A stretch of 64,000 nucleotides of DNA from Candidatus Eiseniibacteriota bacterium (GTDB taxonomy: Bacteria; Eisenbacteria; RBG-16-71-46): positions 64,001-128,000 of the forward strand of contig JBBRLX010000005.1 in NCBI GenBank assembly GCA_038231135.1, given 5' to 3'. The notes below the pieces were generated by a model, which had not been told where the DNA came from, searched no databases, and saw only the letters and a program-made list of their open reading frames with translations. Shown in pieces: positions 12,663 to 54,415 of the stretch. How positions within the stretch are numbered: position 1 is the first letter of the stretch; each line of letters opens with the position of its first letter. A program made the position numbers and the translations under genes.

Positions 12663-12739
12663 GCGGAAGTAGCTCAGCCCGGTAGAGCCCCACCTTGCCA
12701 AGGTGGTTGTCGGGGGTTCAAATCCCCTCTTCCGCTCCA
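12663..12739 (+). tRNA. tRNA-Gly (GCC)
   Basis: Acceptor stem GCGGAAG/CTTCCGC, D-arm AGCTCAG..GGTAGAGC, anticodon arm CCACC-TTGCCAA-GGTGG, T-loop TTCAAAT, encoded CCA. Confidence 0.97.
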
Positions 12740-24445: not shown

Positions 24446-25648
24446 ATGAGAAGCAGGACATCATGGTCATGGGTGACGTGTCTCGTCGCGGCCGGATGCG
24501 CGGGGGGCGCCTCCCTGGCCCACGCCATCACCTGGGCACCATACCTGAGCCTGGACGGGCGGTATGACGACAACGTATTGCATCGGCCCCAAGGGGCCGA
24601 TGACGTGGTCAGTGTGGCGACCCCGGGACTCAAGATTTTCAACCGCGATCCGATCACGTCCTATGACCTGGACGGCAGCAGCGGTTTCACCTCGTATTCC
24701 AGGACCCACTTGAAGACTTCGCGACGTGACATTGCCACGCTCGACCTGACGCACAACCCGGGCTATTTTGAGAAGCTCGACCTCAACGCGTGGTACCAGC
24801 GTTCGGCGGATCCAATCGACTTCCGCCAGGGCACGGTCACCCAGCGCGGGGACGTCAGCAGCGCCGGCGGGACGGGCGAGTTGTCGTTGTTTCGGGTGGG
24901 GGCGGCGGCGGATGTGCGCCGCTGGGATTACGCCGACGGACAGTTGGCCGATGGCCGGTCGACGAACGTGACGGGCCGGCTGTTTCCGGTGAACACCCGG
25001 AGCACGCGATTCGCGCTCGAAGCGCGGCGGAGTGAATTGGAAGTGGGAGACGGGGTGGCGCTCCAGGCTGGTTACGAGACCGCATCATTCAGGCGGCAGC
25101 ATTCCGACAACTTCTGGTCGGAGCTCGAGGCCGGCCGTGTGGAGGCGCGATTTCGCGACGGCACCCGCAAGGTGCATTCCGCGATCGCCGCGTCGTTCAG
25201 CCGGTCGAGCGGAGGCGCGAGGACGCCGGTCACCCTGTCGGTCCGGGTCGCCGACGACATCGCGACCACCGTCGATGCCGGGCTCACGGGCCGGGGCGCC
25301 GGCCGGTCCCTGGGGCTCCGCTACGAGACGCGACTCGATGCCGACGGTGGTCTCTACCGCGTGCCCACGCTCAGCCGGCGCGGGACGCTCGACGCCAGCG
25401 ACACGCTCGGCGGCCGGCTGGTGATCGACGCGAACGGCAGCTTTGCCCGCATCCGTGCGTTCCACGGGAGCGGGCCGGGAGTCGACCAATGGCGCGCGGA
25501 AGCCGGAATCTCGAAGCCGATCGGCCCGTGGCTCACGGCGCGGGTCGCCTACGACTTCCTGCGCCAGGATGTGCCGCTCCCGGGCAGCGACAGCAAGTTC
25601 GATCGAAGCCGTTACAGCATCGGGTTCACGCTGGCCCCCGCGCAATGA
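24446..25648 (+). CDS. Outer-membrane beta-barrel protein associated with polysaccharide export
   Basis: Signal peptide (AHA); N-terminal PYLSLDGRYDDNV...VATPGL; alternating amphipathic strands; C-terminal FDRSRYSIGFTL; first gene before OPX. Confidence 0.7.
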   Translation: MRSRTSWSWVTCLVAAGCAGGASLAHAITWAPYLSLDGRYDDNVLHRPQGADDVVSVATPGLKIFNRDPITSYDLDGSSGFTSYSRTHLKTSRRDIATLDLTHNPGYFEKLDLNAWYQRSADPIDFRQGTVTQRGDVSSAGGTGELSLFRVGAAADVRRWDYADGQLADGRSTNVTGRLFPVNTRSTRFALEARRSELEVGDGVALQAGYETASFRRQHSDNFWSELEAGRVEARFRDGTRKVHSAIAASFSRSSGGARTPVTLSVRVADDIATTVDAGLTGRGAGRSLGLRYETRLDADGGLYRVPTLSRRGTLDASDTLGGRLVIDANGSFARIRAFHGSGPGVDQWRAEAGISKPIGPWLTARVAYDFLRQDVPLPGSDSKFDRSRYSIGFTLAPAQ

Positions 25649-25730
25649 CGGGCACCGACATGACCGCTCGCATCATCCTCAGGACCGCAGCAACCTCGCC
25701 GCCCGAAGCCGCGACGGAAGGAGCCGTGAA

Positions 25731-27026
25731 GTGATCCAGGCAAGACAGGCAGTCTACGCGGGTGCGCTGGGGCTCTTGGTGCTGCTGGCCGGCTGCGCCG
25801 GTGCCCCCGTGCGCAGGACGAACACGCGTCCCGAGGCGATCATCGTGTCGCCGAAGGACGGTTCGACGGTCATGGCCGGAGAGTCGGTGGCACTGGCCGC
25901 AGACGCGCGCGACCAGCAGGAACCGGCCGCGCGGCTCCAGTACCAGTGGGACGTCGACGCGATCCGGGCGGACCACAGCCGCCGCCGGGTGCTGAGTCTG
26001 CGGGGGATCAAGACCGCGTTCGAGCCGCCCACGACGACCGTGGATCACTACGAAGTGCGGCTGATCGTCACCGATTCCGGCATGCTGCGCGACACCGTGC
26101 ACGTGCGGCTCGCCGCGATCCCGCGGCCGGCGAAGCCGGTGGCGAGCGCGACCGCGTCCCGCAGTGCCACGACTCCCGTCGCACCCCGGATCGGCAATCA
26201 CACCGCGCCGGAGAAGCCGTCGCATACGGCGAAGGCTCCCGTCCGCACCGCGTCCGCCGGTTCGAAGCCAAAGGGGAGCGGCCCCGCGCCGGCAGCCACC
26301 GCCTCCGCGGACGGCGGCCACACCGTCTCGAGCCCGACCGCGCAGCCGTCCCTGGCGGCTCGCAGCGCCACCGCGGTCCAGGTCCCGCCGCCCGCGACCG
26401 TCGACGCCGCGCCGCCGCCGGCGACCACGACCGCGGCCAGCCCGGCATCGAGCCGGGACAGCGGAGCCGCCAAGCCGAATCCGCCCTCGCCGCCGCCGGT
26501 CGCGCCGCAGACGCAGCCGGCTCCGGACGAGGCGTCCTATCCGCTCGGTCCCGGCGACGAAGTCCACGTCGCGATCTATGCCGGCGGCGAGAAGCAGGAG
26601 GATTTTTCCGGGAACGTGGCGCCGTCGGGCACGCTGACGAGCCCGCTGATCGGCGAGATCCCGGTGTCCGGGCTCACCGCATCGGAGGTGTCCAACCGGA
26701 TTCGCGAGATCCTCGCCCGCGACTACTTCGTGAATCCGCAGGTGATGGTGAGCGTCGCGTCGTTCGCCCGCAAGGTGTACGTGTCGGGCGAAGTGCGCAA
26801 TCCCGGTGGCTACTCGGTCGCGACCGGGCTGACGGTGATGAGCGTGTGCACGCTGGCCGGTGGCTTCACCGACTTCGCGTCGCTCAAGAGTGTGAAGCTG
26901 ATCCGCACCGAGAACGGCAGGACGCGGACGATCGATATCGACCTTTCCAAGGTGCGTCGCGGTAAAGCGCCGGACCTGGCCGTCATGGCGGGCGACCGCA
27001 TCGACGTGCCTCACCGCCGCTACTAG
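25731..27026 (+). CDS. OPX/Wza-family polysaccharide export lipoprotein with N-terminal Ig/PKD-like domain, Poly_export domain and one SLBB domain
   Basis: Lipobox LLAGC; YPLGPGDEVHV, G.L..PLIGEI.VSGLT, YFVNPQV.V, VYVSGEVRNPG.Y, LAGGFTDFA, GDRIDVP. Confidence 0.88.
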   Translation: MIQARQAVYAGALGLLVLLAGCAGAPVRRTNTRPEAIIVSPKDGSTVMAGESVALAADARDQQEPAARLQYQWDVDAIRADHSRRRVLSLRGIKTAFEPPTTTVDHYEVRLIVTDSGMLRDTVHVRLAAIPRPAKPVASATASRSATTPVAPRIGNHTAPEKPSHTAKAPVRTASAGSKPKGSGPAPAATASADGGHTVSSPTAQPSLAARSATAVQVPPPATVDAAPPPATTTAASPASSRDSGAAKPNPPSPPPVAPQTQPAPDEASYPLGPGDEVHVAIYAGGEKQEDFSGNVAPSGTLTSPLIGEIPVSGLTASEVSNRIREILARDYFVNPQVMVSVASFARKVYVSGEVRNPGGYSVATGLTVMSVCTLAGGFTDFASLKSVKLIRTENGRTRTIDIDLSKVRRGKAPDLAVMAGDRIDVPHRRY

Positions 27027-28373: not shown

Positions 28374-28375
28374 CC

Positions 28376-29518: not shown

Positions 29519-30741
29519 TGGAACGACTGACCGAAAAGCCCGGGGCCGCTCCCAGGATGGTAGCCGGTGAGCCGCCGAAGATCCGCGACACGTTCCTGCC
29601 GTTCGCCCTGCCACTGATCGGCGAGGAGGAGATCGCAGGCGTCGTCATGTGCCTGCGCTCCGGCTGGCTCACCACCGGACAGAAGGTGCGGGAGTTCGAG
29701 CAGGAATTCGCCACGTGGGCGGGCTCGAAACACGCGATCGCGGTCAACTCGGCGACGTCCGGCCTGCACCTGGCGCTCGAAGCGCTGGGCGTGGGACCCG
29801 GCGACGAGGTCATCACCACGCCCATGACGTTCACCGCCACCGCGGCGGTGGTCGAACACCTGGGCGGTGTGCCGGTGCTGGTCGATTGCGAGCCCGACAC
29901 GCTCAACATCGATCCGCGCCTGATCGAGGCGAAGATCACCCCGCGCACCAAGGCGATCATGCCGGTGCACTTCTCCGGGCAGTCCGCCGACATGGACGCG
30001 ATCATGGCGATCGCGCACGAACACGGCATCCGCGTGGTGGAGGACGCGGCGCACGCGATCCCCACGGCGTGGAAGGGACGCCGCATCGGCTCGATCGGCG
30101 ACATCACGGTGTTCAGCTTCTACGCCACGAAGAACCTCACCACCGGCGAGGGCGGCATGATCACGACCGACGACGACGCGCTCGCCGAGCGCATGCGGCT
30201 GATGTGCCTGCACGGCATGAGCCGCGACGCGTGGAAGCGCTACACGCAGGCCGGCGCGTGGTCCTACGAGATCCTCGCGCCGGGCTTCAAGTACAACCTG
30301 ACCGACATCGCCGCGGCGATCGGCATCCCGCAGCTGCGTCACGCGGCCGAGTACCACGCGCGGCGGGCCTCGATCGCGGCGCGCTACGACGCGGCGCTCG
30401 GCAAGCTCGCCGGCGTGCGCATTCCCACCACGCGCGACGCCCAGGAGCACGGCTGGCATCTGTACGTGATGCAGGTGCAGCACGACAAGCTCACGATCGA
30501 CCGGGACGAGTTCATCCAGCAGCTCGTGGCGCTCAACATCGGCGTCTCGGTGCACTTCATCCCGCTCCACCTGCATCCCTACTGGCGTGACCGCTACGGT
30601 TACAAGCCGGAGGACTTCCCCGCGGCCTACGCAGCCTTCCAGCGCATCATCTCGCTGCCGATCTACGCGAAGATGAGCGACCGCGACGTGCAGGATGTGA
30701 TCGACGCAGTCACCTGGATCGCCACCCGCTACCGGAAATGA
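29518..30741 (+). CDS. DegT/DnrJ/EryC1/StrS sugar aminotransferase
   Basis: [70 protein letters not shown] overlap with the kinase. Confidence 0.95.
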
Positions 30742-33149
30742 AACGTCTGTTCGACATCGTCGTCGCGGCGGTGGGAATCCTGTTCCTGTCGCCGGTGATG
30801 GCGGTCGTCGCACTGCTCATCAAGCTCGAAGGCGACGGTCCCGTGCTGTTCCGGCAGCAGCGGGCCGGCCGCCGCATGAAGCCGTTCGACATCCTCAAGT
30901 TCCGCACGATGGTGACGAACGCGCCCGCGCTGGGACCCGGCGTGACGATCGGCAACGACCGCCGCATCACCCGCGCCGGCGGCGTTCTGCGCAAGACCAA
31001 GCTCGACGAGCTGCCGCAGCTGTTCAACGTGCTGCGCGGCGAGATGAGCTTCGTCGGCCCGCGGCCCGAGCTGCCGCGCTACGTCGCGCTGTACCCCGCG
31101 GAGTTCAAGGAAGTGCTGAGCGTGCGGCCCGGCATCACCGACATCGCGTCGATCGTCTACCGTGATGAGTCGGGCATCCTCGCGCGCTCGGCAGACCCCG
31201 AGGCCTACTACGAATCCGTCGTGCTCCCCGACAAGATCCGCATGGCCCGCGAGTACGTGCGCGCGTCGTCGCTGTGGTTCGACGTCAAGCTGATCTTCAC
31301 CACGCTCACGGTCCTGCTGTATCCGCGCCGGACCGCCGAGCGGGTCGTCGACCGCCTCGGCCGCCAGCGGGTGCCGCTCTCGATCGCCGTGCACGCGGCC
31401 GCCGCCGTGCTCGCGAGCGCCCTGGCCTACGCGGTGCGGTTCGACGGCCGCGCGCCGGCGTCCGAATGGCACCGGTTCTCAAGCCTGCTGCCGTGGCTCG
31501 TCGCGGCACGGCTCCTGGGGTTCCTGCCGGCCGGCGTGTACCGCAGCCTGTGGCGCTACTCGGATGCCCGCGACCTCGAGCGCACGGCGCTGGGCGTGGC
31601 GCTGGGCTCCGGCCTGTTCACGCTCGCGCTCCGCGTGATCCCCGGCGGCGCGGGAACCTCGACGGCGGTGCTGGTGCTGGACGCGCTGCTGTGCCTCGCA
31701 CTGCTCGGCGGCGTGCGGTTCGCGCGCCGCATGATGAGCCGGCTGCGCAACGAGGTGCCGCGCACGCGCCGCGCGCTGCTCGTTGCGACCGGCGACGTCG
31801 CCGACCGCGTGCTGGGCGGCATCGCCGGCGACCCGCTGTCGGGCTGCCACGTGATCGGCGTGCTCGAGGACGACGCGTCGCGCACCGGCGCCACCCTGCA
31901 CGGCGTGCCGGTGCTCGGCGCCGCATCCGACCTCGAGGCCATGATCAAGCGCGAGCAGCCCGACGAGATCCTGATCGCGGGCGGCTCGCCGCAGGCGGTG
32001 CGCCAGCTGGTGAAGCTCGCCGCCGCGTTCGAGAAGCCGGTGCGCTCGATCCCCGATCCCAGCCACATGCTGTCGGGCGACGCGTTCGGCCCGCCGCCGT
32101 TCGAGCCCGAGGACCTGCTGTTCCGCGATCCGATCCGCACCGATCCCGCGGGGCTCGCGGCTGCGTACGCCGGCCGCTGCGTGCTGATCACCGGCGCGGG
32201 GGGGTCGATCGGCTCCGAGATCTGCCGCCAGATTGCGCAGCTCGAACCGTCGCGGCTCGTGCTGTTCGAGAAGCACGAGGCCAGTCTGTTCTTCACCGAG
32301 CGCGAGCTGCGCACGCTCGCGCCCCAGCTCGACATCGTCGCCGTGATCGGCGACATCACCGACGCCGAACGCGTGACGCAGGTGATGCACGACACGCGGC
32401 CCGACGTGGTGTTCCACGCGGCCGCGTACAAGCACGTGCCGATGATGGAGCACCATCCGTCCGAGGCCTACAAGACGAACGTGCTCGGCACCCGCGTGGT
32501 GGCCGAGGCCGCGGCGCGTGCCGGCGTGGGCAGCTTCGTGCTGATCTCCACCGACAAGGCCGTCGAGCCGGTCAGCGTCATGGGCCTCACCAAGCGCATC
32601 GCCGAGCTGACGGTGATGGGCCTGAACGGGCCCGGCCAGCCCCGCTACATGGCCGTGCGATTCGGCAACGTGCTCGATTCGAGTGGCAGCGTGGTGCCGC
32701 TGTTCCGCGAGCAGATCGAGAAGGGTGGCCCGATCACCGTGACCCACTCGGAGGTGACCCGGCTGTTCATGACCGTGCCCGAGGCCGTGCAGCTCATCCT
32801 GCACGCCGTGACGCTCGGTACGGGCGGCGAGGTGTTCGTGCTCGACATGGGCAAGCCGGTGCGGATCCTCGACCTGGCGAAGACGCTCGCCCGGCTGCAC
32901 GGGCTCCACCCGGGCCGCGACATCGATATCGTGTTCACCGGGCTCAGGCCCGGCGAGCGGCTGTTCGAGACCCTGTTCAACGAGCACGAGAAGATCTGGA
33001 AGACGCCGCACCCCAAGATCCTGATGGCGGCGAACGGCGCGGGTGGTCCCGACGGGCGCAACGAGCTCGACCGGCTGCTCCAGGTGCTCGACGATCGCAT
33101 CCGCCAGGTCGCCGCGCCGCCGGGGCAGCCCGCGAGCCCGCCGTCATGA
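30738..33149 (+). CDS. Fusion of a monotopic phosphoglycosyl transferase (PglC-like) and a membrane-anchored UDP-GlcNAc 4,6-dehydratase (PglF/CapD/WbpM-like)
   Basis: [38 protein letters not shown]; about 4 TM; then [51 protein letters not shown] in one ORF. Confidence 0.92.
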
Positions 33150-34675
33150 GCGCGCGCCGCGTGACCGCACGCAAGGAGAAGCGCGCCGCCGAGCTGCGCG
33201 CGCTCGAGACCGCCGAAGTTCGCGCCCGGCTCACGGCCGACATCACGGCCGGCCGCGGTGCGCAGGCGGCGGACATGGCCGCGGCCGGCTACGGCGCGGT
33301 CGCGGGGGGTGCGGAGCGCGGCGCGACCGCCGGCGGTCGGAGAGTTCCGCCGTGGGCGCGGTTCGCGCGCAGCGCGCAGGCGCCGGTTGCGGACGTGGGG
33401 TCCGGAGCGTTCGGCGGCCGCCTCGCGTCGGCCATGCTGATCCTCGCCGTCATCCTGGTGCCGCTCGTCCAGCCGATCGGGCCCGGCCAGATCGCGGTGG
33501 GGGACCTGCTCAACGTCCTGGGGATGGCGTTGTTCGGCATCGTGCTGCTGACGCGGCGGCCACGCATCACGCTGCCGCTCATCATGCCGGTGTTCGTGAT
33601 CGCGTTCGCGAGCCTGATCGCCACGCTGAACGCCGCGGCGCCGGGCCAGAGCCTCGTCACCATGGCGCAGGACACCTACCTCTACCTGTGGTTCGTGGTG
33701 CTGGTGAACGTGTTCGCCGACCACGGCGACCTCCGGCGGGTGCGCTGGACCTGGATGGTGGTGTCGGCCGCGATCTCGCTGTATGGCGTGTATGCGCTGA
33801 TGCACACGTATCATTACGGCCTCGGCGCCCTGTTCGGCGCCAAGGGCGAGCGCGCGGCGGGGACGTTCGGCAACGCGAACTTCTTCGCCGACTATCTGGT
33901 GATCAGCTTCTTCGTGATCGCGAGTCTCGGCTCGGAGACCTCGTGGATGATCCGGTTTCCGGCGCTGGGGGCGATCCTGCTCGGACTGATGGCGTCCAAG
34001 TCGCTGGGTGGACTGCTGTCGCTGATCGGCGGCCTCCTGGTCTGGTTCTTCGCACGCTCCGCGACCCGCCGGACCTCGGTGCTGGCGACGGTCGCCGTCG
34101 TCAGCGTGCTGGGTGGCGTGGCGCTGCTCGGCGGCTGGGTGGTGAAGGAGTGGGGCATCGGCCAGAAGGGCCTCAAGGTGATGACGAGCCAGAGCGTCGT
34201 CGGCCGGCTCGACAAGAGCTCCGCGAGCCGCATCCAGATCTGGACCGAGCTGCGCAACCGGTTCGAGCGGCGGCCGCTCGGCATCGGCCCCGGGAACAGC
34301 AGCGAGATCATGCTGTCGGTGTCGAATCGCGAGCGCCGCGGCGGATCGGTGCAGGGCAAGGAGGCGCACAACGACTATGTCGGCTACGCGGTCGAACGCG
34401 GCCCGCTCGCGCTGCTCGCGCTGTTCGCGATGATCGTGATCTCGCTGCAGGTGCTCCAGCAGGGCTGGTCGCGCGTCCGCGACCGGTCGTCGGCGGTGCC
34501 CGGGGCGTGGGTCGCGGCGCTCGCTGCCGGGCTGATCGCGAGCTCGATCCACTCGTTCACGATCGAGAAGCTCCACTTCCGGCACTTCTGGTTCTTTCTG
34601 GCGCTGCTGTTCGCGCTGAGCGCCCGACTTAAGACTCGTCCTCCACCGGCCGCGGAGCCCGTCCGCCCGCGCTGA
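33146..34675 (+). CDS. O-antigen ligase / Wzy-like polymerase family membrane protein
   Basis: About 11-12 hydrophobic segments; RAAGTFGNAN, R..IW, PLGIGPGN, AHNDYV..AVERG. ATGA overlap. Confidence 0.85.
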   Translation: MSARRVTARKEKRAAELRALETAEVRARLTADITAGRGAQAADMAAAGYGAVAGGAERGATAGGRRVPPWARFARSAQAPVADVGSGAFGGRLASAMLILAVILVPLVQPIGPGQIAVGDLLNVLGMALFGIVLLTRRPRITLPLIMPVFVIAFASLIATLNAAAPGQSLVTMAQDTYLYLWFVVLVNVFADHGDLRRVRWTWMVVSAAISLYGVYALMHTYHYGLGALFGAKGERAAGTFGNANFFADYLVISFFVIASLGSETSWMIRFPALGAILLGLMASKSLGGLLSLIGGLLVWFFARSATRRTSVLATVAVVSVLGGVALLGGWVVKEWGIGQKGLKVMTSQSVVGRLDKSSASRIQIWTELRNRFERRPLGIGPGNSSEIMLSVSNRERRGGSVQGKEAHNDYVGYAVERGPLALLALFAMIVISLQVLQQGWSRVRDRSSAVPGAWVAALAAGLIASSIHSFTIEKLHFRHFWFFLALLFALSARLKTRPPPAAEPVRPR

Positions 34676-34964
34676 CGCCCGCGGGGGAGGTCCAAACCCC
34701 AACGGGGCCCGGGGTGACGCCCGGAACGCTCCGCGGACACCCCGGGGGCGGCGGTAACGCTGGCTACGGCGTGCGAAGCCGCCCCGGACTCGAATCGGGC
34801 ATCCCCGGTGCCGGTTTCCCAGGCCCGTGAAACGCTGGCCCGGGATGTGCTGTTGAGTTCTGTACGTCGACGGCTGCCGCGCAAGCGGCTCCCGGGGACA
34901 AGCTGCTGCACGAGCGGCCGATAGCGTGAAAGCCTTGCCTGTGGCGGCCCGCGTTGCGGCTGCG

Positions 34965-34998
34965 GTGTCGTCCGGACAATCGTCGGTCCGGACGACAC
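34965..34998. repeat. Perfect 13-bp inverted repeat in the long intergenic region
   Basis: GTGTCGTCCGGAC-N8-GTCCGGACGACAC. Confidence 0.8.
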
Positions 34999-35349
34999 GG
35001 AGGGCGGTGGGTCGGACGGCCCGCCGTCGGCGAATTCGCTGTGTATTTTGGCGAATTCGGCAGTGAATTTCGCACGATTTCGCGGTTGGAGTCATCGAAC
35101 TCGCAGCATGATTTGTCGGCAGGGGGGTGCTTTGATGCTGCTATACTCTTTGCTCCGTTCCGGGACGCAGGGTCGAGGCCGGCAGGATCCGGGTTCGAGC
35201 GCCGTCGTCCTGGCCCGGGCCCCGATCTGCCGCCTCCCATACGAGTCACCCGACGTCCGCGCCCGCTGCCCGCGGGACCGGTCGACGGTGAGTCCCCGAA
35301 TCCCGGCTTTGTGCCGGGGCACCAACGAACAGAACAGGATCGTCCGCGG

Positions 35350-36537
35350 ATGACCGAGAACCCATCCAGTTCAGCCTCCATGCCCGCCGAAGCCATCCGG
35401 CTCGTGGACATCATCAACCTGAGTTCTTCGGCGAACACGCTGCTCAAGAACCGGGTGCTGTCGATGCGCGCCCGCGGCGTGGACAATCGCATCCTGTGCA
35501 TCGACGGGCCGTACGTGCGGCTGCTGCGCGACCAGGGCATCCCGGTCGCGACCGCGGGCATGCCGCGCAGCATGAATCCGTTCGCCATGCTGACGTCCAC
35601 GTTCGAGATGGCCGCCTACCTCAGGCGCGAGCGCATCGACGTCGTGCACACGCACTGCTCGATGCCCGGCGTCCTGGGCCGCATTGCCGCCAGGCTGGCC
35701 GGCGTGCCGGTGATCATCCACACGATCCACGGGCTCCACGTGCACGACCGCTGGCATCCGGTGCTGCTCAATCTGTTCACGTTCGCCGAGAAGTTCTGTG
35801 GCCGCTTCACCGACATGCTGCTGAGCCAGAACCGCATCGATCTCGAGCTGGCCCGCCGGCTCGCGCTGGTGCCCGCCGGCCGGCTGCGGTTCATCGGCAA
35901 CGGCATCGACATCGATCGCTTCCGCCCGCAGCCGCGCGTCGCTGCGGCTGGGCCGCTCACGATCGTCTGCACCGCAAGGCTCGAGCCGGTGAAGAACCAC
36001 CCGCAGCTGTTCCAGGCCATGAAGCTGCTGACCGAGCGCGGCATTCCGGCCCGCGTCTGGCTCGTGGGCGACGGTCCGCTCAAGCCCGAGTACGTGCGCA
36101 TGTGCGCCGAGCTCGGCATCGCCGACCGGGTCGAGTTCCTGGGGTATCGCGATGACGTGCCGGGGCTGCTCGCCAGGGCCGACGTGTCCGTGCTGACCTC
36201 GGTCAAAGAGGGCATCCCGCGGGCGCTGCTCGAGGCCATGGCCATGGAGCTGCCGGTGATCGGCACCCGCGTGGTCGGCACCGACGAGACCGTGCGTGAC
36301 GGCGAAACCGGCTGGCTCGTCGAGTACGGCGACGCCGAGGCGCTCGCCGAGCGGCTGGCGCGTCTCGCGGCCGATCCCGCGCTGCGCGCACGCCTCGGAC
36401 AACGGGGCCGTCAGGTGGTCGAGGCCGAGTTCAATGAACGCCAGATCGTGGAGTCGCTGGCCGCCATCTACCGCCAGATCCTGAGCACCAAGGGGCTCGG
36501 TGCCTCGATCTCCCAGCCGCACGCGGTGAAGCCGTGA
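35350..36537 (+). CDS. GT4 glycosyltransferase
   Basis: DVVHTH, IIHTIHG, IGNGID, ARLEPVKNH, LVGDGP, TSVKEGIPRALLEAMA (intact EX7E). Start 35350 or 35380. Confidence 0.92.
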   Translation: MTENPSSSASMPAEAIRLVDIINLSSSANTLLKNRVLSMRARGVDNRILCIDGPYVRLLRDQGIPVATAGMPRSMNPFAMLTSTFEMAAYLRRERIDVVHTHCSMPGVLGRIAARLAGVPVIIHTIHGLHVHDRWHPVLLNLFTFAEKFCGRFTDMLLSQNRIDLELARRLALVPAGRLRFIGNGIDIDRFRPQPRVAAAGPLTIVCTARLEPVKNHPQLFQAMKLLTERGIPARVWLVGDGPLKPEYVRMCAELGIADRVEFLGYRDDVPGLLARADVSVLTSVKEGIPRALLEAMAMELPVIGTRVVGTDETVRDGETGWLVEYGDAEALAERLARLAADPALRARLGQRGRQVVEAEFNERQIVESLAAIYRQILSTKGLGASISQPHAVKP

Positions 36538-38099
36538 GCGAGCCGATTTCGGTGCCGAGCATGGGCATCGAGCCCACGGGTGGCTACGAACCCCCGGAGG
36601 GCCCGGTTAAGGCCCTGGCCTCGGGGACTTCGGTGCGCACCGCGGCGCGGATCGGCAAGAACTTCTCGTTCCGGATGGCCGCGCAGATCCTGAGCGCCAT
36701 GATCAACGTCGGCGCCATGGTGCTGCTCGGCAACTACCTGAGCGCCGAGCGCTACGGCGACTACGTGTTCTACTACGCGCTGATCCCGCTGATCGCGAGC
36801 CTCAGCGATCTCGGCACCGGCGTCATGATCACGAAGGAGATCGCGCGCGAGAAGCTGATGGGTCCGCGGTTCTACGGCGACGCCCTGCTGATCAAGGGGG
36901 TGGTCGGGCTCGCGCTGCTCACGATCGTGTCCGTGGCGTCGTGGACCACGCTCGATCACGGTCGCGCGCTGCTCGTGACGCTGGTGTGCGCGACCGCGCT
37001 CATCGACTTCAGCCAGGACGTGTCGGTGTGGATCGTGCGCGCGCACGAGCGGCTCGACGTCGAGGCGGTGCTGCTGCTCGCGAGCCAGGTGGCGTGGATG
37101 GGAGGCATCGCGGTGGGCGCGGCGCTCCACCTGTCGCTGCCGTGGCTGCTGGCGTCCGCGAGCGTCGCGTTCGCGATGCGCACGCTGATCGGCATCTGGA
37201 TCGTGCGGCGCCGGTTCTACCGCCCGGTGTTCCAGCCGGATTACGCCCGGCTCCGGAAGTTCGTGCTGCAGGCGCTGCCGTTCGGCCTCGCGATGTTCAT
37301 CGTGGTGCTGTACGGCCGCATCGGCGTGCTGATGCTGAAGGCGATGGCCGGCAAGGCCGACGTGGCGCTGTTCAACGTCGGCTACATGCTGTCCCAGCCG
37401 CTCGGATTCATCTCGACCGCACTGAGCATGGCGGCGTTCCCGGCGCTCGCCCGCCGCGCCCAGCGCGGCCACGGCGCGATCTCGAGCGCGCTGCGGCGCA
37501 CCACCAAGTACCAGTTCCTCGTGACGCTGCCGATGATGGCGGGCCTGTTCCTGCTGGCCGAGCGCGTGATCCCGCTGCTGTTCCACGGCACCGACTTCGC
37601 GCGCGCCGGGTTCGCGCTCAAGCTCATGAGCCTCGGGCTGGCGTTCATCTTCATGAACCTGATGTCGCGCTACGTGCTGGCGGCGATCGACGCGAACCAG
37701 GTGTATCTCCGGGCGGTGCTGGTCGGGCTGGCGGTGAATGTCGCGATCGGCGTGATGCTGATCCCGCGCTACGGTTTCGCCGGCGCCTGCATCGCCCAGC
37801 TGTCCGGCGAGCTGTCGATCTTCGTGATGTGCCAGAGCGCGCTCACGCGCTACGTGAGCGTGCGCGAGGTGTTCGCCGCGCTGGTGCGGCCCGCGTTGGC
37901 GGCGCTCGGCAGCGGCGCCGTCGTGTGGCTGCTGCGGCATTCCAACCTGGCGCTGGCCGTGGTCGCGGGCGGCGCCACCTACGTCGTGCTGCTGTTCGTG
38001 GTGCGTGCGTTCAACGACGACGAGCTGCGCCTGATGCGCGGCGTGCTCCAGTCGTTCGTCCCCGGTTCGGCCCCCGGCCGTGCCGAACCTCGTTCGTGA
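36534..38099 (+). CDS. wzx: Wzx-like oligosaccharide flippase (MOP family)
   Basis: IGKNF, YLSAERYG.Y, LSDLG....ITKEIAR, VALFNVGY, AAFPALAR, LIPRYGFAGA; about 14 TM. Confidence 0.88.
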   Translation: MSEPISVPSMGIEPTGGYEPPEGPVKALASGTSVRTAARIGKNFSFRMAAQILSAMINVGAMVLLGNYLSAERYGDYVFYYALIPLIASLSDLGTGVMITKEIAREKLMGPRFYGDALLIKGVVGLALLTIVSVASWTTLDHGRALLVTLVCATALIDFSQDVSVWIVRAHERLDVEAVLLLASQVAWMGGIAVGAALHLSLPWLLASASVAFAMRTLIGIWIVRRRFYRPVFQPDYARLRKFVLQALPFGLAMFIVVLYGRIGVLMLKAMAGKADVALFNVGYMLSQPLGFISTALSMAAFPALARRAQRGHGAISSALRRTTKYQFLVTLPMMAGLFLLAERVIPLLFHGTDFARAGFALKLMSLGLAFIFMNLMSRYVLAAIDANQVYLRAVLVGLAVNVAIGVMLIPRYGFAGACIAQLSGELSIFVMCQSALTRYVSVREVFAALVRPALAALGSGAVVWLLRHSNLALAVVAGGATYVVLLFVVRAFNDDELRLMRGVLQSFVPGSAPGRAEPRS

Positions 38100-38113: not shown

Positions 38114-39583
38114 ATGTCCAGCTCGGGAGTGTCGGTGATCGGGAGTCCCCTGTCGGAACGGGCGCGGATGCTGCCCCTGCGCGCGCACGATCCGTCGTCC
38201 AAGCTCGTGTCGCTGTCGCTGGGCATCGAGTCGAACGATTTGATCGACCGCTCGCTGGCCGAGATGGCCGAGTTGCCGTACGTGGACGACATCCTCGCGC
38301 TCCCCGACGTGCACCAGAAGGCGCAGATGGAGATCCCATCCAGCATCGCCGTCACGACCCGAGACGTGATCGTGCCCGAGTTCACCTCGGCCGCGGTCAA
38401 CGACGGCATGGGGGTGGTGGTCACCGACCTCGACGCATCGGCGCTCACGCCCGAGCGGCTGAGGGCGTTCTTCACGCGCGTGAACTCGAATTCCGCGGCG
38501 CATCCGTTCGACGGCAACCGCTACAGCATCTCGGGTGACGAGCTGCGCCGCGTGATCGCGGTGGGCGGCCGGGGCGCGCTCGGCCGCTACGGATTCCCGG
38601 AGTCGGTGCTCGACCGGTTCGAGGACCGCGGCGCGATCTCGGGCGTCGCCGACGTGCGCGCCGAGGACGTCGTGCCGCTGCACCTGCTCACCACGCGATT
38701 CAGCCGCTCCGAGATGGGTCTCAACTTCGGCGGCAACCACTTCCTCGAGGTCCAGGTGGTCGACAAGGTGCTCGATCCCATCGCGTCGACGTGGGGGCTC
38801 CGCGAGGGCCAGGTGGTCGTGATGTACCACCTCGGTCCGGGACCGTTCTCGGGCACGCTGCTGCATCACTATTCGCGCCGCACCAAGCTCAAGTCGCACC
38901 GCGTCCCGATGTTCTTCCTGTCCAAGCTGATGTTCCACTACCTGCAACGCATGGGCCGCACGAATCCCGCGAAGGCGTGGGCGATGCACTTCCGCCAGAA
39001 CCGCTGGACGCCGTTCCCGGTGCGGTCGGAGGAGGGTCAGCTGTTCCGGAAGGCACTCGCCATGGCGCTCAACTTCGGCTACGCCTACCGGCTCGCCACC
39101 GTGCGCGCGATCGTCGACGGACTCACCGAGGCGGTGTCGCCGAACGTACGCGCGGAGCTGCTGTGCGACATCTCGCACAACGGCATCACCGAGGAGACGT
39201 GGGGCGGCCGCCGCGGCTGGATCGCGCGGCACAACGCCTGCCGGCTCGCTCCGGGCGGCCCCGCGATCGTGGCCGGATCGTACGACGTGGCGTCGTATCT
39301 CGGTGTCGGCCTCGACGGCGGCCCCGACGGCCGGCTGCATTCGTACGACCACGGCGCCGGCAACCTGATCGAGCACTTCCGCGACCGCGGCACGCTCGAT
39401 CGCGACGCCGGCACCGTCACCCGGCTCAAGATGACCCGCGGCAAGAACGCGGAAGTCGTGCGCAGCGAGCAGGTGCCGATGCGCTCGGCGATGCCGATCG
39501 ATCTCGTGATGGAATGCCTCGAGCGCAATGGCGTGGTGCGTCCGGCCGTGCGGTTGCGGCCGATCGGCAACTTCAAGAACTGA
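38114..39583 (+). CDS. Divergent RtcB-family protein (RNA ligase fold) inside the polysaccharide operon
   Basis: ALPDVH, VNDGM, GGNHFLEVQVVD, VMYHLG, SEEGQ...A.NFG.A.R, DISHN, AGSYD, DHGAG, RLRPIGNFK. SD AAGGAG. Confidence 0.85.
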   Translation: MSSSGVSVIGSPLSERARMLPLRAHDPSSKLVSLSLGIESNDLIDRSLAEMAELPYVDDILALPDVHQKAQMEIPSSIAVTTRDVIVPEFTSAAVNDGMGVVVTDLDASALTPERLRAFFTRVNSNSAAHPFDGNRYSISGDELRRVIAVGGRGALGRYGFPESVLDRFEDRGAISGVADVRAEDVVPLHLLTTRFSRSEMGLNFGGNHFLEVQVVDKVLDPIASTWGLREGQVVVMYHLGPGPFSGTLLHHYSRRTKLKSHRVPMFFLSKLMFHYLQRMGRTNPAKAWAMHFRQNRWTPFPVRSEEGQLFRKALAMALNFGYAYRLATVRAIVDGLTEAVSPNVRAELLCDISHNGITEETWGGRRGWIARHNACRLAPGGPAIVAGSYDVASYLGVGLDGGPDGRLHSYDHGAGNLIEHFRDRGTLDRDAGTVTRLKMTRGKNAEVVRSEQVPMRSAMPIDLVMECLERNGVVRPAVRLRPIGNFKN

Positions 39584-39599: not shown

Positions 39600-40457
39600 A
39601 TGGCCCTAGAATCCCCACGCGAGCTGCGAGCGCTCTGCCAGGCCGGCAAGGAAGTCGACCCGGGGTGGTACTTCGTGCACCGCCGGCTGTCGATCTACGT
39701 CACGTGGCTGCTGCTGCACACGCGCGTGACGCCGAACCAGGTGACGCTGCTGATGATGGTCACGGGCACCGTGGGCGCGGCGCTGCTGGTGCCGCATGCG
39801 GCCGCGCTCAACGTGTGCGGATTCCTGGTGCTGTACCTGGCATTCCTGCTCGACAAGGTCGACGGTGAGATCGCCCGCTACCGCGGCGTGTCGTCGACGC
39901 GCGGCCTGCTGCTCGACCGACTGCACCATCTGGCGATCGAGCCGCTGGTGTTCCTCGCCGCCGCGTGGCACGACGGGTCCACGTCCGGATCGCTCGGCGC
40001 CTGGAACGCGGGCTGGGCGATCATCGTGCTCGGCAACATCGTGGACGAGCACCAGCACCTGTCGGCCTACATCCTGTTCAAGCACCTGCGCGGCACCCAC
40101 CGACGCCCCGCCCGGGGCCTTAGGGTCCCGCCGCCCGGGCTCGCCGTCGCGCTCCGGCTGATGCGGCCGCTCAAGGCGTTCCGGATGTTCATCATCGCGG
40201 TGCCCGCCCTCGCTGCCGCCTATGTCGCGGAAGCGTGGACCGGGGCGCCGGTCGTGAGGTGGTACCTGTACGCGAGCACCGCCGGGCTCGCCGTGTTCCT
40301 GGCCTTCCAGGCCTATTACTACTTCCAGTTCAAACTCGAAGCGGAAATCGGCGAACAGGCGGAGCTCCTCGCGGACGATGCCGGCGCCGGATCCGCAGCG
40401 AGCGGGACCCCGGAACCCGGGCGCGAGACTGCGCTGCGGGCCGTGTCCCGTGGCTGA
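39600..40457 (+). CDS. CDP-alcohol phosphotransferase family membrane protein
   Basis: RRLSIYVT, VTPNQVT, DKVDGEIARYRG...RGLLLDRLHH. Confidence 0.88.
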   Translation: MALESPRELRALCQAGKEVDPGWYFVHRRLSIYVTWLLLHTRVTPNQVTLLMMVTGTVGAALLVPHAAALNVCGFLVLYLAFLLDKVDGEIARYRGVSSTRGLLLDRLHHLAIEPLVFLAAAWHDGSTSGSLGAWNAGWAIIVLGNIVDEHQHLSAYILFKHLRGTHRRPARGLRVPPPGLAVALRLMRPLKAFRMFIIAVPALAAAYVAEAWTGAPVVRWYLYASTAGLAVFLAFQAYYYFQFKLEAEIGEQAELLADDAGAGSAASGTPEPGRETALRAVSRG

Positions 40458-40491: not shown

Positions 40492-43400
40492 ATGATTGCC
40501 CATCCTCCAGCTCTGGCCCGCCTCCGGCGCGGCGACGCGCCGTTCACCCGCAGCCTCACCCGCGTCGCGGCCACGGCGGCGCTTGCGCTCGCATGTGTCG
40601 CAGGCAACGCCGCGGCCACCGGCACATTCTACGTCGACAACGCAAGCGGATCCTGCTCGGACGCGGGTCCCGGCACGCTCGCGAATCCGTACTGCTCGAT
40701 CGCGGCCGCGATCCTCGCGCACAACGGCCCCGGCACCACGATCCTCGTGCGGCCGGGCGTGTATCCCGAGATGGTGACGATCCCGGCCTCGGGCGCCCCG
40801 GGCAGTCCGTTCGTGATCCAGGCCAACGGCGGCACCGTGGTGATCGAGGGCTCGGACGACTTCGGCAATCCGTCGCTGTGGGCGCCGGTCGCCGGCACCG
40901 AGTACGTGGCGGCCTCGGTGATCTGGACGCCGCTGCAGGTGTTCGCCGACGGCCAGCGGCTCACCGCGTCGACGAACGCGCCGGGCACGCTGCCCGTGGG
41001 CACGTTCAACTACATCGCGGGCTCCGGCCTGCACGTGAACCTCGGCACCAACAGCCCCGGCCTGCACGGCGCGCGCGTCGGCCACCGCCTGCACGGCTTC
41101 ACGATGACGGGCAAGTCGTGGGTCACGATCGACGGCTTCGAGGTGACGCACACCGAGGATCGCGGCATCAACGTGGCCGGCATCACCTCGCCCCAGACGT
41201 TCACGTCGAACATCACGCTCAGCAACAATCGTGTCCTGTACGCCAACGGCTACGGCATCCAGGTGTCGATCGGCTCCAACGACCTCATCGCCGGCAACGT
41301 CGTCGGGTTCAGCGCCGACCACGGCATCTACGTCTCGACCGGCTCCACGGCGTGCACGATCCAGGACAACGAGTCGTTCTCGAATGCGCGCCCCACGATC
41401 CGCGCGGCGAACGGCATTCACCTGAACGCCTCGACCAACAACCTGGTCCAGCGCAACCGGCTGCACGACAACCAGGACACCGGCCTCCAGATGAACAGCG
41501 GCGCGAACAACAACGTGTCGCGCGAGAACCAGTCGTGGAACAACGGCGATCACGGGTTCGACCACCTGAGCTCGACCGGCAACCAGCACATCAACGACGT
41601 GGCGTACGGCAACTACAAGGACGGGTTCTCGATCGAAGGCAACTCGCCCAACACCAGCGTCGTGAACTGCATCGCCACCGACAACGGCCTCACCACGAAC
41701 GAATACGACATCTGGGTCGACCCGAACTCGAGCGTCGGTTTCGTCTCGGACTACAACATCTTCTGGAACTCGACGGCGCAGAACCCGTTCAAGTACATCG
41801 CCACGCCGTATGCCACGCTGTCCGCGTATCAGGCGGCGTCCGGCAAGGATTCCAAGACCAAGCAGCAGAATCCGCTGTTCATCTCGCCGGCGAACGGCAA
41901 CTTCCACCTGCTCACCGGCTCACCGGCGGTGGACTGCGCCAACGCCTCGACCCCGAACTGGCTCGCCACGGACGCCGACGGCCGCGCGCGGGTGGACATC
42001 TCGACGGTGTCGAACACCGGTCTCGGCTCGCCGCTGTACTCCGATCGCGGCGCCGACGAGTACTACACCACGCCCGGCAGCGATCATGCGCCGGCCGTCG
42101 CGGGACCCACGACGGCCACGGTCGGCGAGCGCCAGATGCTGGTGGTGAACGTCACCGTGTCGGATGTCGACAACGACCCGATCCACACGCTGACCGCGAA
42201 CCTGGCGGTGCTGCCGTCGCCGAACGACGCGGTGTTCCTCACGAACGCGTCGCACACGGCCGGCACGCTCACCTGGACGCCGACGAACTCCGGCGGCCCC
42301 TACGCCGTGACGTTCACGGCGACGAACGCCAAGAGCGCATCGCGGACCACGTCGGTCACGGTCGTCAATTCGGACCTCGCGCCGGTCGTGAACTCGCCGC
42401 CGTCGGTGACCGCCACCGAGAATTCACCGCTCACCGTGACCGTCACGGCGTCCGACCCTGACAACCAGGCGATCCAGTCGCTGTCCGCGGATCTCGCGGG
42501 CCTGCCGGCGGGCAACAACGCGGTGTTCTCGACGAACGGCTCGAACACCGTGGGCACGCTGACCTGGACGCCGACGTTCTCGGACGCGCCCGGTCCCTAC
42601 ACCGTGACGTTCACCGCTTCGAACGCGCTCACCACGACATCGGTCAGCTCGATCGGCGTGACGAACGTGGACCACCCGCCGGTCGTGGTCGCGCCCGCCA
42701 CCGCGACCGTGGCGGAGAACGGCGCGCTGTCGCTCGACGTGACCGCGTCGGATGCCGATGGCGATGCCATCGACCAGCTGGTCGCGAACGTGGCCGGGCT
42801 GCCCGCGGGCAACAACGCCACGTTCACCGCCAATCCCGGCAACACGTCGGGGACGTTCCACTGGACCCCGACGTTCGACGACGCGCCCGGGCCCTATACC
42901 GTGACGTTCACCGCCGTGAACGCGCTATCGGGATCGGCCCCGACCTCGATCACGGTGACGAACGCCGATCGCCCGCCGACCGTGACGGCGCCGGCGTCGG
43001 TCACGGCCCTGGAGGGCGTCTCCGACACCATCCAGGTCACCGCCGTCGATCTCGACGGCCAGCCGGTCACGTCGTTCACGGCGAACCTCGCAGGCCTGCC
43101 CGCCGGGAACACCGCGGTGTTCACGACGAATCCCGCGAAGAGCCTGGGGCTGCTCGTGTGGACCCCGTCGTTCTCGGACGCGCCCGGCCCCTACGCGGTG
43201 TCGTTCACGGCCGCGAACGCGCTGTCGGGCTCGGCGTCCACGTCGATCGCGGTCACGAACGTCGACCGCGCGCCCGTGATCACGGCGCCCGCCACCGCGA
43301 CCGCGCCCGAGAACGGCGTGTTCTCGCTCGACATCACGGCGGTCGATCCCGACGGACAGCCGGTGACGATCCTGACCGCGAACCTGTCGGGGCTGCCGGC

Positions 43401-46400
43401 CGGCAACAACGCGACGTTCACGCCAAACCCGTCGAAGAGCGCCGGCACGTTCACCTGGACGCCGACGTTCGCCGATGCCCCCGGTCCGTATGCGGTGTCG
43501 TTCACGGCGTCGAACGCGCTCACCGGCACCGCGACCACCTCGATCTCCGTGTCGCATTCCGATCGTGCACCGGTGGTGTCGGCGCCGGGCACCGTGACCG
43601 GCGCCGAGAACGGCGCGATCACCGTGTCGGTCACCGCGTCCGACCCCGACAATCAGTCGATCACGTCGCTGACCGCGAACCTGTCGGGGCTGCCGGCCGG
43701 GAACTCCGCGGTGTTCACGTCCAATCCCGCGCATACCGCGGGCACGCTCACCTGGACGCCCACGTTCGCCGACGGCCGCGTGCCGCCCTACACCGTGTCG
43801 TTCACGGCCACGAACACGCTGAGCGGCAGCGCGACCACGGCGATCACGGTCGCGAACGTCGATCGCGCGCCGGCCATCACGGTGCCGGCGGCCGTGGCCG
43901 GCAGCGAAGGCGTTGCGCTCTCGATCCCCGTCACCGTGGCGGATCCGGACGGGCAGGCGGTCAGCTCCTTGACCGCCGACCTCAGCGGCCTGCCGTTCGG
44001 CAGCAACGCCGCGTTCACCCAGAACCCCAGCCACACGTCGGGCACGCTGACGTGGACACCGACGTTCAACGACGGCCGTCCGGCGTCCTACGGCGTCTCG
44101 TTCACCGCCTCGAACGCGCTCACGGGCAGCGCGTCGACCGCGATCACGATCGCGAACGTGGACCGTGCGCCGGTGGTGACCGCGCCGTCCGTCGTGACGC
44201 GTCCCGAGCACCAGCAGATCGTGCTCCAGGTGACCGCGGCCGATCCCGACGGCCAGCCGATTGGCGCCCTGACCGCCGATCTGTCGAGCCTGCCGCCGGG
44301 CAACGACGCGACGTTCACGTCGAGCGCCGACCACACCACCGGCACGTTCTCGTGGCGTCCCGATTTCGCCAGCGCGGCCAGCTACCCGGTCGTGTTTCTT
44401 GCCTCGAACGCGATCACCGGATCCGCGACGACGACGTTCACGATCCAGAACGCCGATCGCGCACCCGTGGTCGCGGCGCCCGCGTTCGTGAGCGCGAGCG
44501 AGAACGGTCTCGTCACCGTGACCGTGACCGCGTCGGACCCCGATGGCGATTCGATCACGAGCCTGACCGCGAATCTCGCGAACCTGGCGCCCGGCAACGA
44601 TGCCGTGTTCACGAGCAACGCCGCACACACCGGCGGGACGCTGACGTGGACGCCGAACTTCGACGACGGCCGTCCGGCGACGTACGACCTGGTGTTCATC
44701 GCGGCGAACGCGCTGTCGGGTTCGAAGGTCACCGCGATCCAGGTGCAGAACGTCGACCGCCCGCCGGTGGTGACCGTGCCGTCGGTCGTCCACGTCGTGG
44801 AGTCGAACATTATGGTGATGCACATCACCGCGAGCGATCCCGATGGCGATCCGATCGCGGCGCTCACCGCGAACCTCGCCGGATTGCCGCCCGGGAACAA
44901 CGCGACGTTCCAGCAGGGCGACCTGTCGTTCGCGCCGGCGCGCGCGGGCAACGCCGCGCACACCGGGGTCGCAAATTCCGGGACGCCCGTGGTGCAGGCG
45001 GGGTCCAACGCCGGGGCGCCCGGCGGACATCCGGGCCGCAGGGCGGAGACCGGCGACGGCACGCCAGGGCAGGACTTAGGCGGCGGCCAGGGCGCCAGCT
45101 CCGTGACGTACACCCTGATCTGGACGCCGGGATTCGCGGACGCGCCCGGCCCGTATCCGGTGTCGTTCACCGCGTCGAATGCGCTCACCGGCTTCGCCAC
45201 GAGTTCGATCGACGTCGCGAACGACGACCGCCCGCCGGTCGTCACCGCGCCCGCGACGGCGACGGCGGCCGAAGGCGCGACGGTCACCGTCGATGTGACC
45301 GCCGCGGATCCCGACAGCGAGGCGCTCGGCGCGCTCACTGCCGATCTGTCGGGGCTGCCGCCCGGCAACAACGCGGTGTTCACGCCGGCCGCCGACCAGT
45401 TGTCGGGCACGCTGACCTGGACTCCGTCATTCGCGGACGCGCCCGGCCCCTACAAGATCACGTTCATCGGCTCGAACGCGCTGTCGGGTTCCGCGACCAC
45501 CAGCATTGCGGTCGCGAACGTCGACCGTGCGCCGGTCGTGACCGCGCCGGCGTCGGTGACGGCGCCCGAAGCGCAGGTGGTGACCGTGACCGTCACGGTG
45601 GCGGACCCCGATCAGGACGCGATCGCGTCGCTCACCGCCGATCTGTCGTCGCTGCCCCCGGGCAACGACGCGGTGTTCACGCCGGCGGCCGACCGGCTGT
45701 CGGGCACGCTGACCTGGACCCCGGCGTTCGCGGACGCCCCGGGCCCCTACAAGATCACGTTCATCGGTTCGAACGCGCTGGCGGGTTCGGCGTCCACGAG
45801 TCTCACGGTTGCGAACGTCGATCGCGCTCCGGTCGTGACCGCGCCGGCGTCGGCGGCTGCAACCGAAGGGCAGCTGGTGACGGTGACCGTGACCGCCGCG
45901 GATCCCGACCACGACGCGATCACGTCGCTCACCGCGGACCTGTCGGCGCTGCCCGCGGGTAACGACGCGGTGTTCACGCCGGCCGCCGACAACCTGTCGG
46001 GAACGCTCACGTGGACCCCGGGCTTCGACGCGGCGCCCGGGCCGTATTCGGTGATGTTCACCGCGACGAACGCGGCGAGCGGCTCGGCCACGTCGGGCAT
46101 CGCGGTCGCGAACGTCGACCGCGCGCCGATCGTCACGGCTCCGGCGCTCGTGACCGGCGCCGAGATCTCGCTGATCACGATCGCCGTCGCGGCCTCGGAC
46201 CCCGACGGTGATCCGATCGATTCGCTCACCGCGAACCTGTCGGCGCTGCCGGCCCTCAACGACGCCGTGTTCCTCGTCGCCCCCGATCACAAGTCGGCGC
46301 TGTTCACGTGGACCCCGCTGCCGGGAGACTCCACGAACGGGCCGTATGCGGTGTCCTTCACCGCGTGGAACGCGCTGTCGCGCGTCGCCGGCACCGCGAT

Positions 46401-54240: not shown

Positions 54241-54415
54241 GCGACGCGTTTGTTCTTGACCCGACGCGTGGCGCAAACGACCATCTCCCGGCACTGCGTT
54301 TTGCGCGTTCATCCCCCCGCGTGTGCGGCCGATCACAACAACTGGACAGATGATCAACGTTCCGTGGCTGATGCTCTTCCCCCCGCCCCGGACCCTAGGG
54401 AAGGTCGGTCCGTTC

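Follow-up and report, generated by a model that had tools for sequence, protein, structure and literature searches.

The RtcB-fold protein encoded at positions 38114..39583 of the window (the whole stretch of DNA that was analysed, 64,000 nucleotides) very probably has a role of some kind in a glycan pathway. Judging from its sequence and its neighbours, there is about an even chance that it is a ping-pong nucleotidyltransferase, which would produce a GDP-polyol donor for the CDP-alcohol phosphotransferase (CDP-AP) encoded next to it, in replacement of a cytidylyltransferase. The donor would most likely be GDP-glycerol. The genes and regions concerned are the following:

24446..27026, + strand: outer-membrane beta-barrel (weak BBP2_2 match) and Wza-type export protein, start uncertain
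27045-28373, + strand: Wzz/GNVR co-polymerase
28370-29518, + strand: Wzc-type ATPase domain protein
29557..30741, + strand: DegT-family sugar aminotransferase
30738..33149, + strand: initiating phosphoglycosyl transferase fused to a UDP-GlcNAc 4,6-dehydratase-type domain
33146..34675, + strand: Wzy_C (O-antigen ligase/polymerase-type) membrane protein, start uncertain
35380..36537, + strand: GT4 glycosyltransferase, start from our own gene call
36534..38099, + strand: Wzx flippase, in some relatives fused to an RtcB-like domain
38114..39583, + strand: RtcB-fold protein of the glycan-linked clade, 489 aa (from ORF, Pfam, alignment and model)
38861..39013, + strand: basic/aromatic helical region of this protein, residues 250-300, net charge +11, 8 aromatics
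39600..40457, + strand: CDP-AP, 285 aa, predicted partner enzyme
40492-46752, about 47111-54211 and 54350-59068, + strand: three large beta-helix and Ig/PKD-repeat surface proteins, the first of a type fused to CDP-AP in relatives

These genes form one same-strand run, from the beta-barrel and wza genes through wzx, the RtcB-like gene and the CDP-AP gene to the three surface proteins. The RtcB-like ORF begins 14 nt after the end of wzx (38099) and is followed, 16 nt further, by the start of the CDP-AP gene (39600), in agreement with the initial annotation. The absence of a cytidylyltransferase from the operon, also put forward there, was borne out: no nucleotidyltransferase was found inside it, the nearest ones lying some 30 kb upstream (ManC, 4818-5876, and NTP_transf_4, 6981-8189) and the next one downstream about 27 kb away, beyond the window end. 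No promoter-like site was found at the locus, and a single terminator was at chance level. Between the Wzy_C and GT4 genes, a 704-nt gap without called gene (window 34676-35379) gave neither a promoter consensus nor an Rfam match; the sole Rfam match is a tRNA gene at window 12663-12736. Past the window end, the region G000 C5:128003-135802 (L194) encodes a methyltransferase, a GT4-cupin protein, a nucleotidyltransferase, a GH4 protein, a ROK kinase and an epimerase fused to a DHQ-synthase-like domain, and resembles a cluster for a cyclitol or a sugar phosphate.

The ORF matches the whole Pfam RtcB profile (PF01139) with 156.5 bits, for a cut-off of 27, and is far under all three NCBIfam RtcB equivalog cut-offs (81.9 bits for 407, 65.8 for 1150 and 57.7 for 271.8). 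Its AlphaFold2 model has a pLDDT of 89, and Foldseek returned 16 matches at E ≤0.001, all RtcB structures (best E 4.5e-27; TM 0.63-0.69 among the matches listed, 17-23% identity in the structural alignments). Neither Pfam nor structure matched the protein to a HIGH or GT-A nucleotidyltransferase fold. It is the sole RtcB match in its own genome (93% complete), where archease and RtcA gave no match, and no Ro or RtcR family member was found among the window genes called and scanned. The lack of these four in the window, noted from the start, holds for the genes scanned, and for archease and RtcA it extends to the genome.

A protein search gave 316 matches, the best 120 at 57-82% identity; the named ones among those listed all carry RtcB names, and most of the closest relatives that have a name belong to Candidatus Eisenbacteria. 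When the search was widened, numerous relatives at 24-41% identity came up, in which Cys98 is kept and Asp95 absent, and the nearest cluster in the ESM Atlas has 2056 members. Comparison with RtcB by HMM and phylogeny had been proposed: the first is the PF01139 match above, and for the second a quick tree of 72 hand-picked sequences (63 divergent, only 9 canonical) places the 63 divergent ones on one side of a branch against the 9 canonical ones (SH-aLRT 100). At the sequence level, the clade of the RtcB-like protein stands apart from the canonical RtcBs sampled. Sequences labelled as CDP-AP-linked all fall inside one group of 36 (98), and a Cys-to-Asp change marks a group of 13 (94). Just weak RtcB-family matches (23-28% identity) were obtained in a plasmid search, among the 15 records listed out of 22, and a broad profile found no longer fused forms at E 1e-40, which is weak evidence. 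No description of the clade was found in the literature searched by title and abstract opening; a 2016 survey of RNA repair may mention it. As for decay, which relaxed selection would have betrayed, it was rejected: the dN/dS of the RtcB-like gene (NG86, with dS probably understated at this GC content) is 0.25-0.30 over three pairs, within the 0.17-0.41 of the neighbour genes.

Residues were mapped by alignment to P. horikoshii (Pho) RtcB and checked against canonical RtcBs from related genomes, and all the kept and remodelled motifs listed in the initial annotation were recovered in these alignments. The protein keeps D65, H67, N208, H209, F210, E212, H239, H355, N356, S394, H413 and K488, which include the counterparts of the Mn1 histidines, His203 and Asn202; that of Asn330 is kept as well. 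Changed relative to Pho are D95 (A94), C98 (D97), Q194 (E200), R238 (G243) and K351 (H373). Three of the five metal ligands (D95, C98, H203, H234, H329), the histidines, are therefore present, A94 and D97 replacing the other two. Over the 119 aligned sequences of more than 430 aa, query included, the nucleophile pair His404/Asp65 of Pho is kept as H413/D65 without exception, and H67, K69, E73, N96, D97, E200, N208, H209, F210, E212, H239, G243, H355, N356, R372, H373, N374, S394, D412 and K488 are equally invariant; K69 and E73 are new and lie within a 2-residue loop insertion. Two of the remodelled positions are less uniform than first described. The Asp-to-Ala change at the metal ligand (position 94) is seen in 102 of the 119 close homologs, but 17 have Asp, and the Asn that ends the HGAGN signature, found in the query and in 38 of the 119, is not fixed (73 His, 4 Ser).

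RNA-contact residues are lost as claimed, Arg238, Gln194 and Lys351 being all changed. Among the contacts to the 5′-OH strand, R238 and Q194 have become G243 and E200, N208 is kept, and the R190 equivalent is ambiguous. The claim of a changed guanine pocket stands in part: Pho Tyr451-Lys452 is lost and the PGSMG loop differs (the alignment of Glu446 is ambiguous), but the residues reported to contact guanine in RtcB, Phe204, Glu206, Lys480 and Ser385 (PMC3973293; PMC9745838; PMC8668186), correspond to F210, E212, K488 and S394, each present in 119/119. Phe204, Glu206 and Lys480 are those shown to be required for recognising guanine. Because these are kept, GTP is the likelier nucleotide, and within the nucleotidyltransferase reading we favour it slightly. 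Directly after the lost Arg238 comes an insert particular to this clade, about 25 residues long, basic and aromatic (the region counts 69 residues, versus 43-44 in 8 of the 9 canonical sequences); it is hydrophobic, its amphipathicity is not strong (moment 0.23), and from its composition it possibly binds membrane or lipid-glycan.

Mutants of canonical enzymes help to interpret the losses. Pho D95A is reported to be inactive alone, Archease restoring 3′-phosphate guanylylation and not ligation (PMC3973293); human RTCB D119A shows a weak self-guanylylation and nil ligation (PMC10944509); and mutation of the Arg238 counterpart decreased sealing 200 fold and RNAppG formation 3 fold (PMC8051266). 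Asp95 and Arg238 are thus residues whose mutation blocks sealing more than 3′-phosphate guanylylation. Two outcomes had been envisaged initially, activation of a small phosphate or direct formation of phosphodiester links, and the former fits these results better than the latter. In RtcB, the metal held by Asp95 interacts with the beta and gamma phosphates of GTP (PMC9745838), and since the pyrophosphate site of RtcB has been proposed to overlap its acceptor-phosphate site (PMC3458531), the acceptor pocket may have been reshaped by the loss of Asp95 and the K69/E73 loop. Alternatively, the change of 2 of the 5 metal ligands, all five of which human RTCB needs for ligation (PMC10944509), could indicate that the protein is not a synthase, and acts as a metal-dependent hydrolase or a nucleotide-binding scaffold or regulator of the glycan machinery. 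A basal, His-independent phosphodiesterase activity of RtcB (PMC3458531) and the existence of His-less paralogs (see below) go in this direction. We find it improbable, as the D65-H413 pair in 119/119 would be expected only for covalent nucleotidyl transfer, and the slot replacement described next would have no explanation.

The predicted partner presents the CDP-AP signature D1xxD2G1xxAR...G2xxxD3, in the form D85-K86-x-D88-G89-x-x-A92-R93...G102-x-x-x-D106-x-x-x-H110. The fourth Asp (D4) is replaced by His in 59/59 readable RtcB-linked motifs, from 61 matches, and the residue after D1 is K, R or Q in all 59, where 37 of the 38 relatives checked have Cys. In a tree, the 20 RtcB-linked CDP-APs included group in a single clade, with labels that we assigned ourselves and a support (85/85) below the starred level. 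D4 is the putative catalytic base and is essential in PIP synthase, and the pyrimidine is contacted in this family by PNQVT, G89, A92, R93 and G102 (PMC4634129). All these pyrimidine-contact elements are kept in the partner CDP-AP, which conflicts with a GDP donor, so that either enzyme may have switched base; CTP has to be considered as nucleotide, at a rather low probability. We know of no member of the CDP-AP family that uses GDP, and we infer the function of those devoid of D4.

The N-terminal R-x-x-S segment of the partner resembles soluble-donor, DIPPS-like matches. It bears on a reading in which the same His-NMP chemistry would serve other substrates, either a GalT-like NMP exchange from an NDP-sugar, or the activation of a lipid phosphate, whether phosphatidate or polyprenyl phosphate, for lipid anchoring by CDP-AP. 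GalT/HIT-type histidyl-NMP transferases produce NDP-sugars via covalent His-NMP; their fold is unrelated, with no sequence or structure match to the RtcB-like protein. Loss of Asp95, whose metal engages the beta and gamma phosphates, would fit a donor without gamma phosphate (PMC9745838), and the insert would fit a membrane substrate. However, the R-x-x-S segment points to a soluble donor, and the relatives of this CDP-AP occur together with soluble enzymes of glycerol phosphate, which makes other substrates of this kind quite unlikely.

The idea that the RtcB-like protein replaces a cytidylyltransferase was examined on 89 CDP-AP loci with 1.5-kb flanks. In the 34 loci with His at D4, an RtcB-like gene alone was present in 15, a nucleotidyltransferase alone in 6, neither in range in 13, and both in none. 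A nucleotidyltransferase was present in 14/17 loci with another residue at D4, 10/19 with Asp (one of them, L223, from a genome flagged unpublished) and 0/19 with an unread motif. Of the best 16 actinobacterial relatives without RtcB, whose seeds came from this same group, 15 are accompanied by a glycerol-1-phosphate dehydrogenase-like gene and 13 by a nucleotidyltransferase. Likewise, an annotated Lactiplantibacillus Wzx cluster has tagD immediately before a related CDP-AP, and an annotated Streptomyces locus combines a LicC-type gene, a dehydrogenase and CDP-AP. RtcB-free relatives are mostly beside a cytidylyltransferase-type gene, which provides a control for the replacement idea.

Conversely, a six-frame phmmer search of 123 RtcB-like loci with 15 nucleotidyltransferase seeds gave matches in 5 of them, namely the seeds themselves (L002, L061), RmlA- or ManC-like sequences (L064, L088) and a marginal one on the RtcB-like gene; a weak NTP_transf_5 match in L039 came from Pfam in addition. 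None of the matches in the 123 loci was TagD- or LicC-like, and a dedicated glycerol-1-phosphate dehydrogenase was found in 0/123. A missing neighbour is not unusual, because 19 planctomycete CDP-APs have neither activator within 1.5 kb. A planctomycete CDP-AP subfamily (L258-L263) has His at D4 and the second Gly lost; of its 11 extended regions, 6 contain a carbamoyltransferase in the vicinity and only 2 a nucleotidyltransferase.

We infer that the RtcB-like gene occupies the slot for donor synthesis, with a donor coming from central metabolism. GpsA is present in the genome, and Fe-ADH_2 gave weak matches alone in the genomes that carry the RtcB-like gene (carriers). A dedicated activator located elsewhere was rejected, the nucleotidyltransferase 27 kb downstream having a close ortholog in 1/5 carrier genomes, the same-genus one. 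An inositol link was not retained either: inositol-1-phosphate synthase is present in 18/21 carriers but in 25/25 non-carriers (a control set that includes G015, flagged unpublished), and does not discriminate. Within the nucleotidyltransferase reading, we would give glycerol phosphate an even chance of being the substrate, and consider inositol phosphate unlikely. No small P-loop kinase partner recurs in the 61 CDP-AP loci (motif scan, proteins <420 aa).

Given its position in the slot of a nucleotide activator beside CDP-AP, the RtcB-like protein would likely activate a small phosphate such as glycerol phosphate, for decoration of the polysaccharide, rather than repair RNA. The first two steps of RtcB have the net reaction NTP + R-P -> NDP-R + PPi, which is that of a cytidylyltransferase. 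By analogy of role, the protein would likely work as TagD or IPCT does in feeding CDP-AP, although it belongs to another family. TagD/LicC/IPCT pairs with CDP-AP (or DIPPS) likewise involve a related CDP-AP among glycan genes, with the activator encoded ahead of the transferase; the present pair departs from them by an RtcB-fold activator, a predicted His-NMP ping-pong, a predicted use of GTP and the lack of a dedicated dehydrogenase.

Recruitment to glycan loci, the other prediction of the initial annotation, was checked on 43 genome loci and, for the wider family, on 80 metagenome loci, many on short contigs and with detection by our own seeds, and was not refuted. Glycan genes were found in 108 of these 123 loci: wzx is present in 35, CDP-AP in 32 and some glycan gene in 38 of the 43 genome loci, and the 80 metagenome loci contain CDP-AP in 29, an APH-type kinase in 24, a P-loop protein in 21 and some glycan gene in 70. 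These counts are not independent, because most close loci come from one phylum and are kin. Adjacency of RtcB-like and CDP-AP genes occurs in records titled Eisenbacteria, Nitrospirae, Limnocylindrales, Acidimicrobiia, Pirellulales and others; among the near-identical cases, some could result from misbinning or recent transfer. A CDP-AP that is missing from the downstream side is in many cases retained upstream or on the opposite strand (L005, L007, L009, L011, L018, L032); L036 and L050, with long downstream sequence and no CDP-AP, are clear exceptions. Of 151 genomes sampled from the phylum, 17 carry the RtcB-like gene, and the partner CDP-AP is present in all 17; with a threshold of >200 bits, this CDP-AP is found in 19 of the 151, both extra cases being near contig ends.

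The same genomes bear on the hypothesis of an atypical nucleic-acid ligase or capping enzyme, a mere passenger of glycan loci. The RtcB-like gene is the sole RtcB match in its own genome and in 8/17 of the carrier phylum genomes, and its basic/aromatic surface could bind RNA. Yet a second RtcB (>300 bits) coexists with it in 6/17 carriers, and also in G152, G154 and G155, while 43 of the 151 phylum genomes are devoid of any RtcB match. Together with the change of Arg238 to Gly, of Gln194 to an invariant Glu and of Lys351 to His, and with the frequency of glycan genes in the loci, this renders the passenger hypothesis very improbable.

Several peculiarities were noted among the relatives. In 8/43 loci (L015, L016, L019-L021, L023, L024, L031) and in 10/10 longer homologs found (P0277-P0286), CDP-AP and the beta-helix/Ig surface protein downstream of it form a single in-frame fusion. 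Split RtcB-like genes (L033, L036, L041, G145 C48 + C117) all break between residues 260 and 298, inside the clade-specific insert, which may reflect an assembly error, decay or a real split; L033 and L041 are one assembly, perhaps the same as G145. Tandem RtcB-like pairs precede CDP-AP in metagenome loci L047-L082 (for instance L047:9451-10845 and L058:9326-10723). Their second copy lacks the His nucleophile in 16/16 cases and has Asp65 changed to Asn in 15 (the start of the remaining one was not called), the metal ligands being kept. Finally, a sister branch (L089-L124; P0163, P0269) has no CDP-AP, and an APH-type kinase in 24 loci and a P-loop protein in 21, the latter homologous to a domain fused to the RtcB-like one in P0269; many of its members lack Asn202 and the terminal Lys480. 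The existence of this kinase-linked branch, without CDP-AP and partly without Asn202/Lys480, means that the clade probably catalyses more than one reaction, and its pairing or fusion with kinases indicates a phosphomonoester substrate.

Another reading is that of a direct glycan ligase. The protein would then carry out all three RtcB steps at the membrane and link a phosphomonoester to a hydroxyl group on the lipid-linked repeat unit, and CDP-AP would perform a separate step. N208, whose counterpart N202 anchors the acceptor hydroxyl for sealing (PMC8051266), is kept, the basic/aromatic insert and the wzx fusions fit such a location, and the kinase-linked branch devoid of CDP-AP needs another route of transfer. 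Moreover, the His-less second copies could be sealing-only subunits. A His-mutant RtcB can seal pre-capped ends. Nevertheless, the losses of Asp95 and Arg238 strike sealing hardest, CDP-AP would be left without donor-making enzyme, the non-overlap with cytidylyltransferases would not be explained, and the wzx fusions are weak evidence because other adjacent genes are also fused in these loci. We therefore regard a direct ligase as rather unlikely.

Under the preferred reading, donor synthesis for CDP-AP, His413 would attack the alpha-phosphate of GTP to form His-GMP, as the kept residues suggest. A small housekeeping phosphomonoester, in place of the RNA 3′-phosphate of RtcB step 2, would then capture GMP, and the product would be released, the sealing step being presumably dropped along with the lost residues. 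The His-type CDP-AP would next transfer the polyol phosphate, in line with the chemistry of its family and the operons of its relatives, to the lipid-linked polysaccharide repeat, ahead of export by Wzx. A stop at the capped N-pp-G product has precedents in the DNA3′ppG capping by E. coli RtcB (PMC8051266) and in Myxococcus RtcB3 (PMC10630183); these act on nucleic acid ends, whereas a small molecule is predicted here. Certain points go against donor synthesis. The rescue of D95A needs Archease, absent here, and we have to assume a compensation by D97, K69 or E73; the sealing-step anchor N208 is invariant; the insert and the wzx fusions suggest a membrane-bound substrate; and the His-less second copies are not accounted for.

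In all, canonical RtcB 3′-phosphate/5′-OH RNA ligases (P. horikoshii PH1602, E. coli RtcB, human RTCB) and the present protein have in common the fold, the His nucleophile and its Asp, the three metal His, N202, N330 and the guanine contacts. Unlike them, it lacks Asp95, has Asp for Cys98, is changed at Arg238, Gln194 and Lys351, and possesses the K/E loop insertion and the 25-residue basic insert; it also belongs to a separate clade in a glycan context, with no archease or RtcA, below the NCBIfam cut-offs. It is an RtcB-fold protein that differs from a canonical ligase in metal ligands, RNA contacts and context alike. More broadly, and tentatively, this multi-phylum branch of the RtcB fold could be a new class of histidyl-GMP nucleotidyltransferases making GDP-alcohols, with a co-evolved His-type ‘GDP-alcohol’ phosphotransferase, for teichoic-acid-like phospho-decorated polysaccharides, and with kinase-fed and two-subunit variants.

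The described RtcB activities that we found all concern RNA or DNA ends. If our reading is true, an RNA-repair fold has been reused for envelope synthesis by a widespread clade acting on small metabolites, which would be a natural proof that the capping and sealing steps of RtcB are separable. It would account for CDP-APs without adjacent cytidylyltransferase and may reveal a GDP-alcohol donor, in which case the two proteins would be a categorically new enzyme pair. Many proteins annotated as tRNA-splicing ligase would then need correcting.
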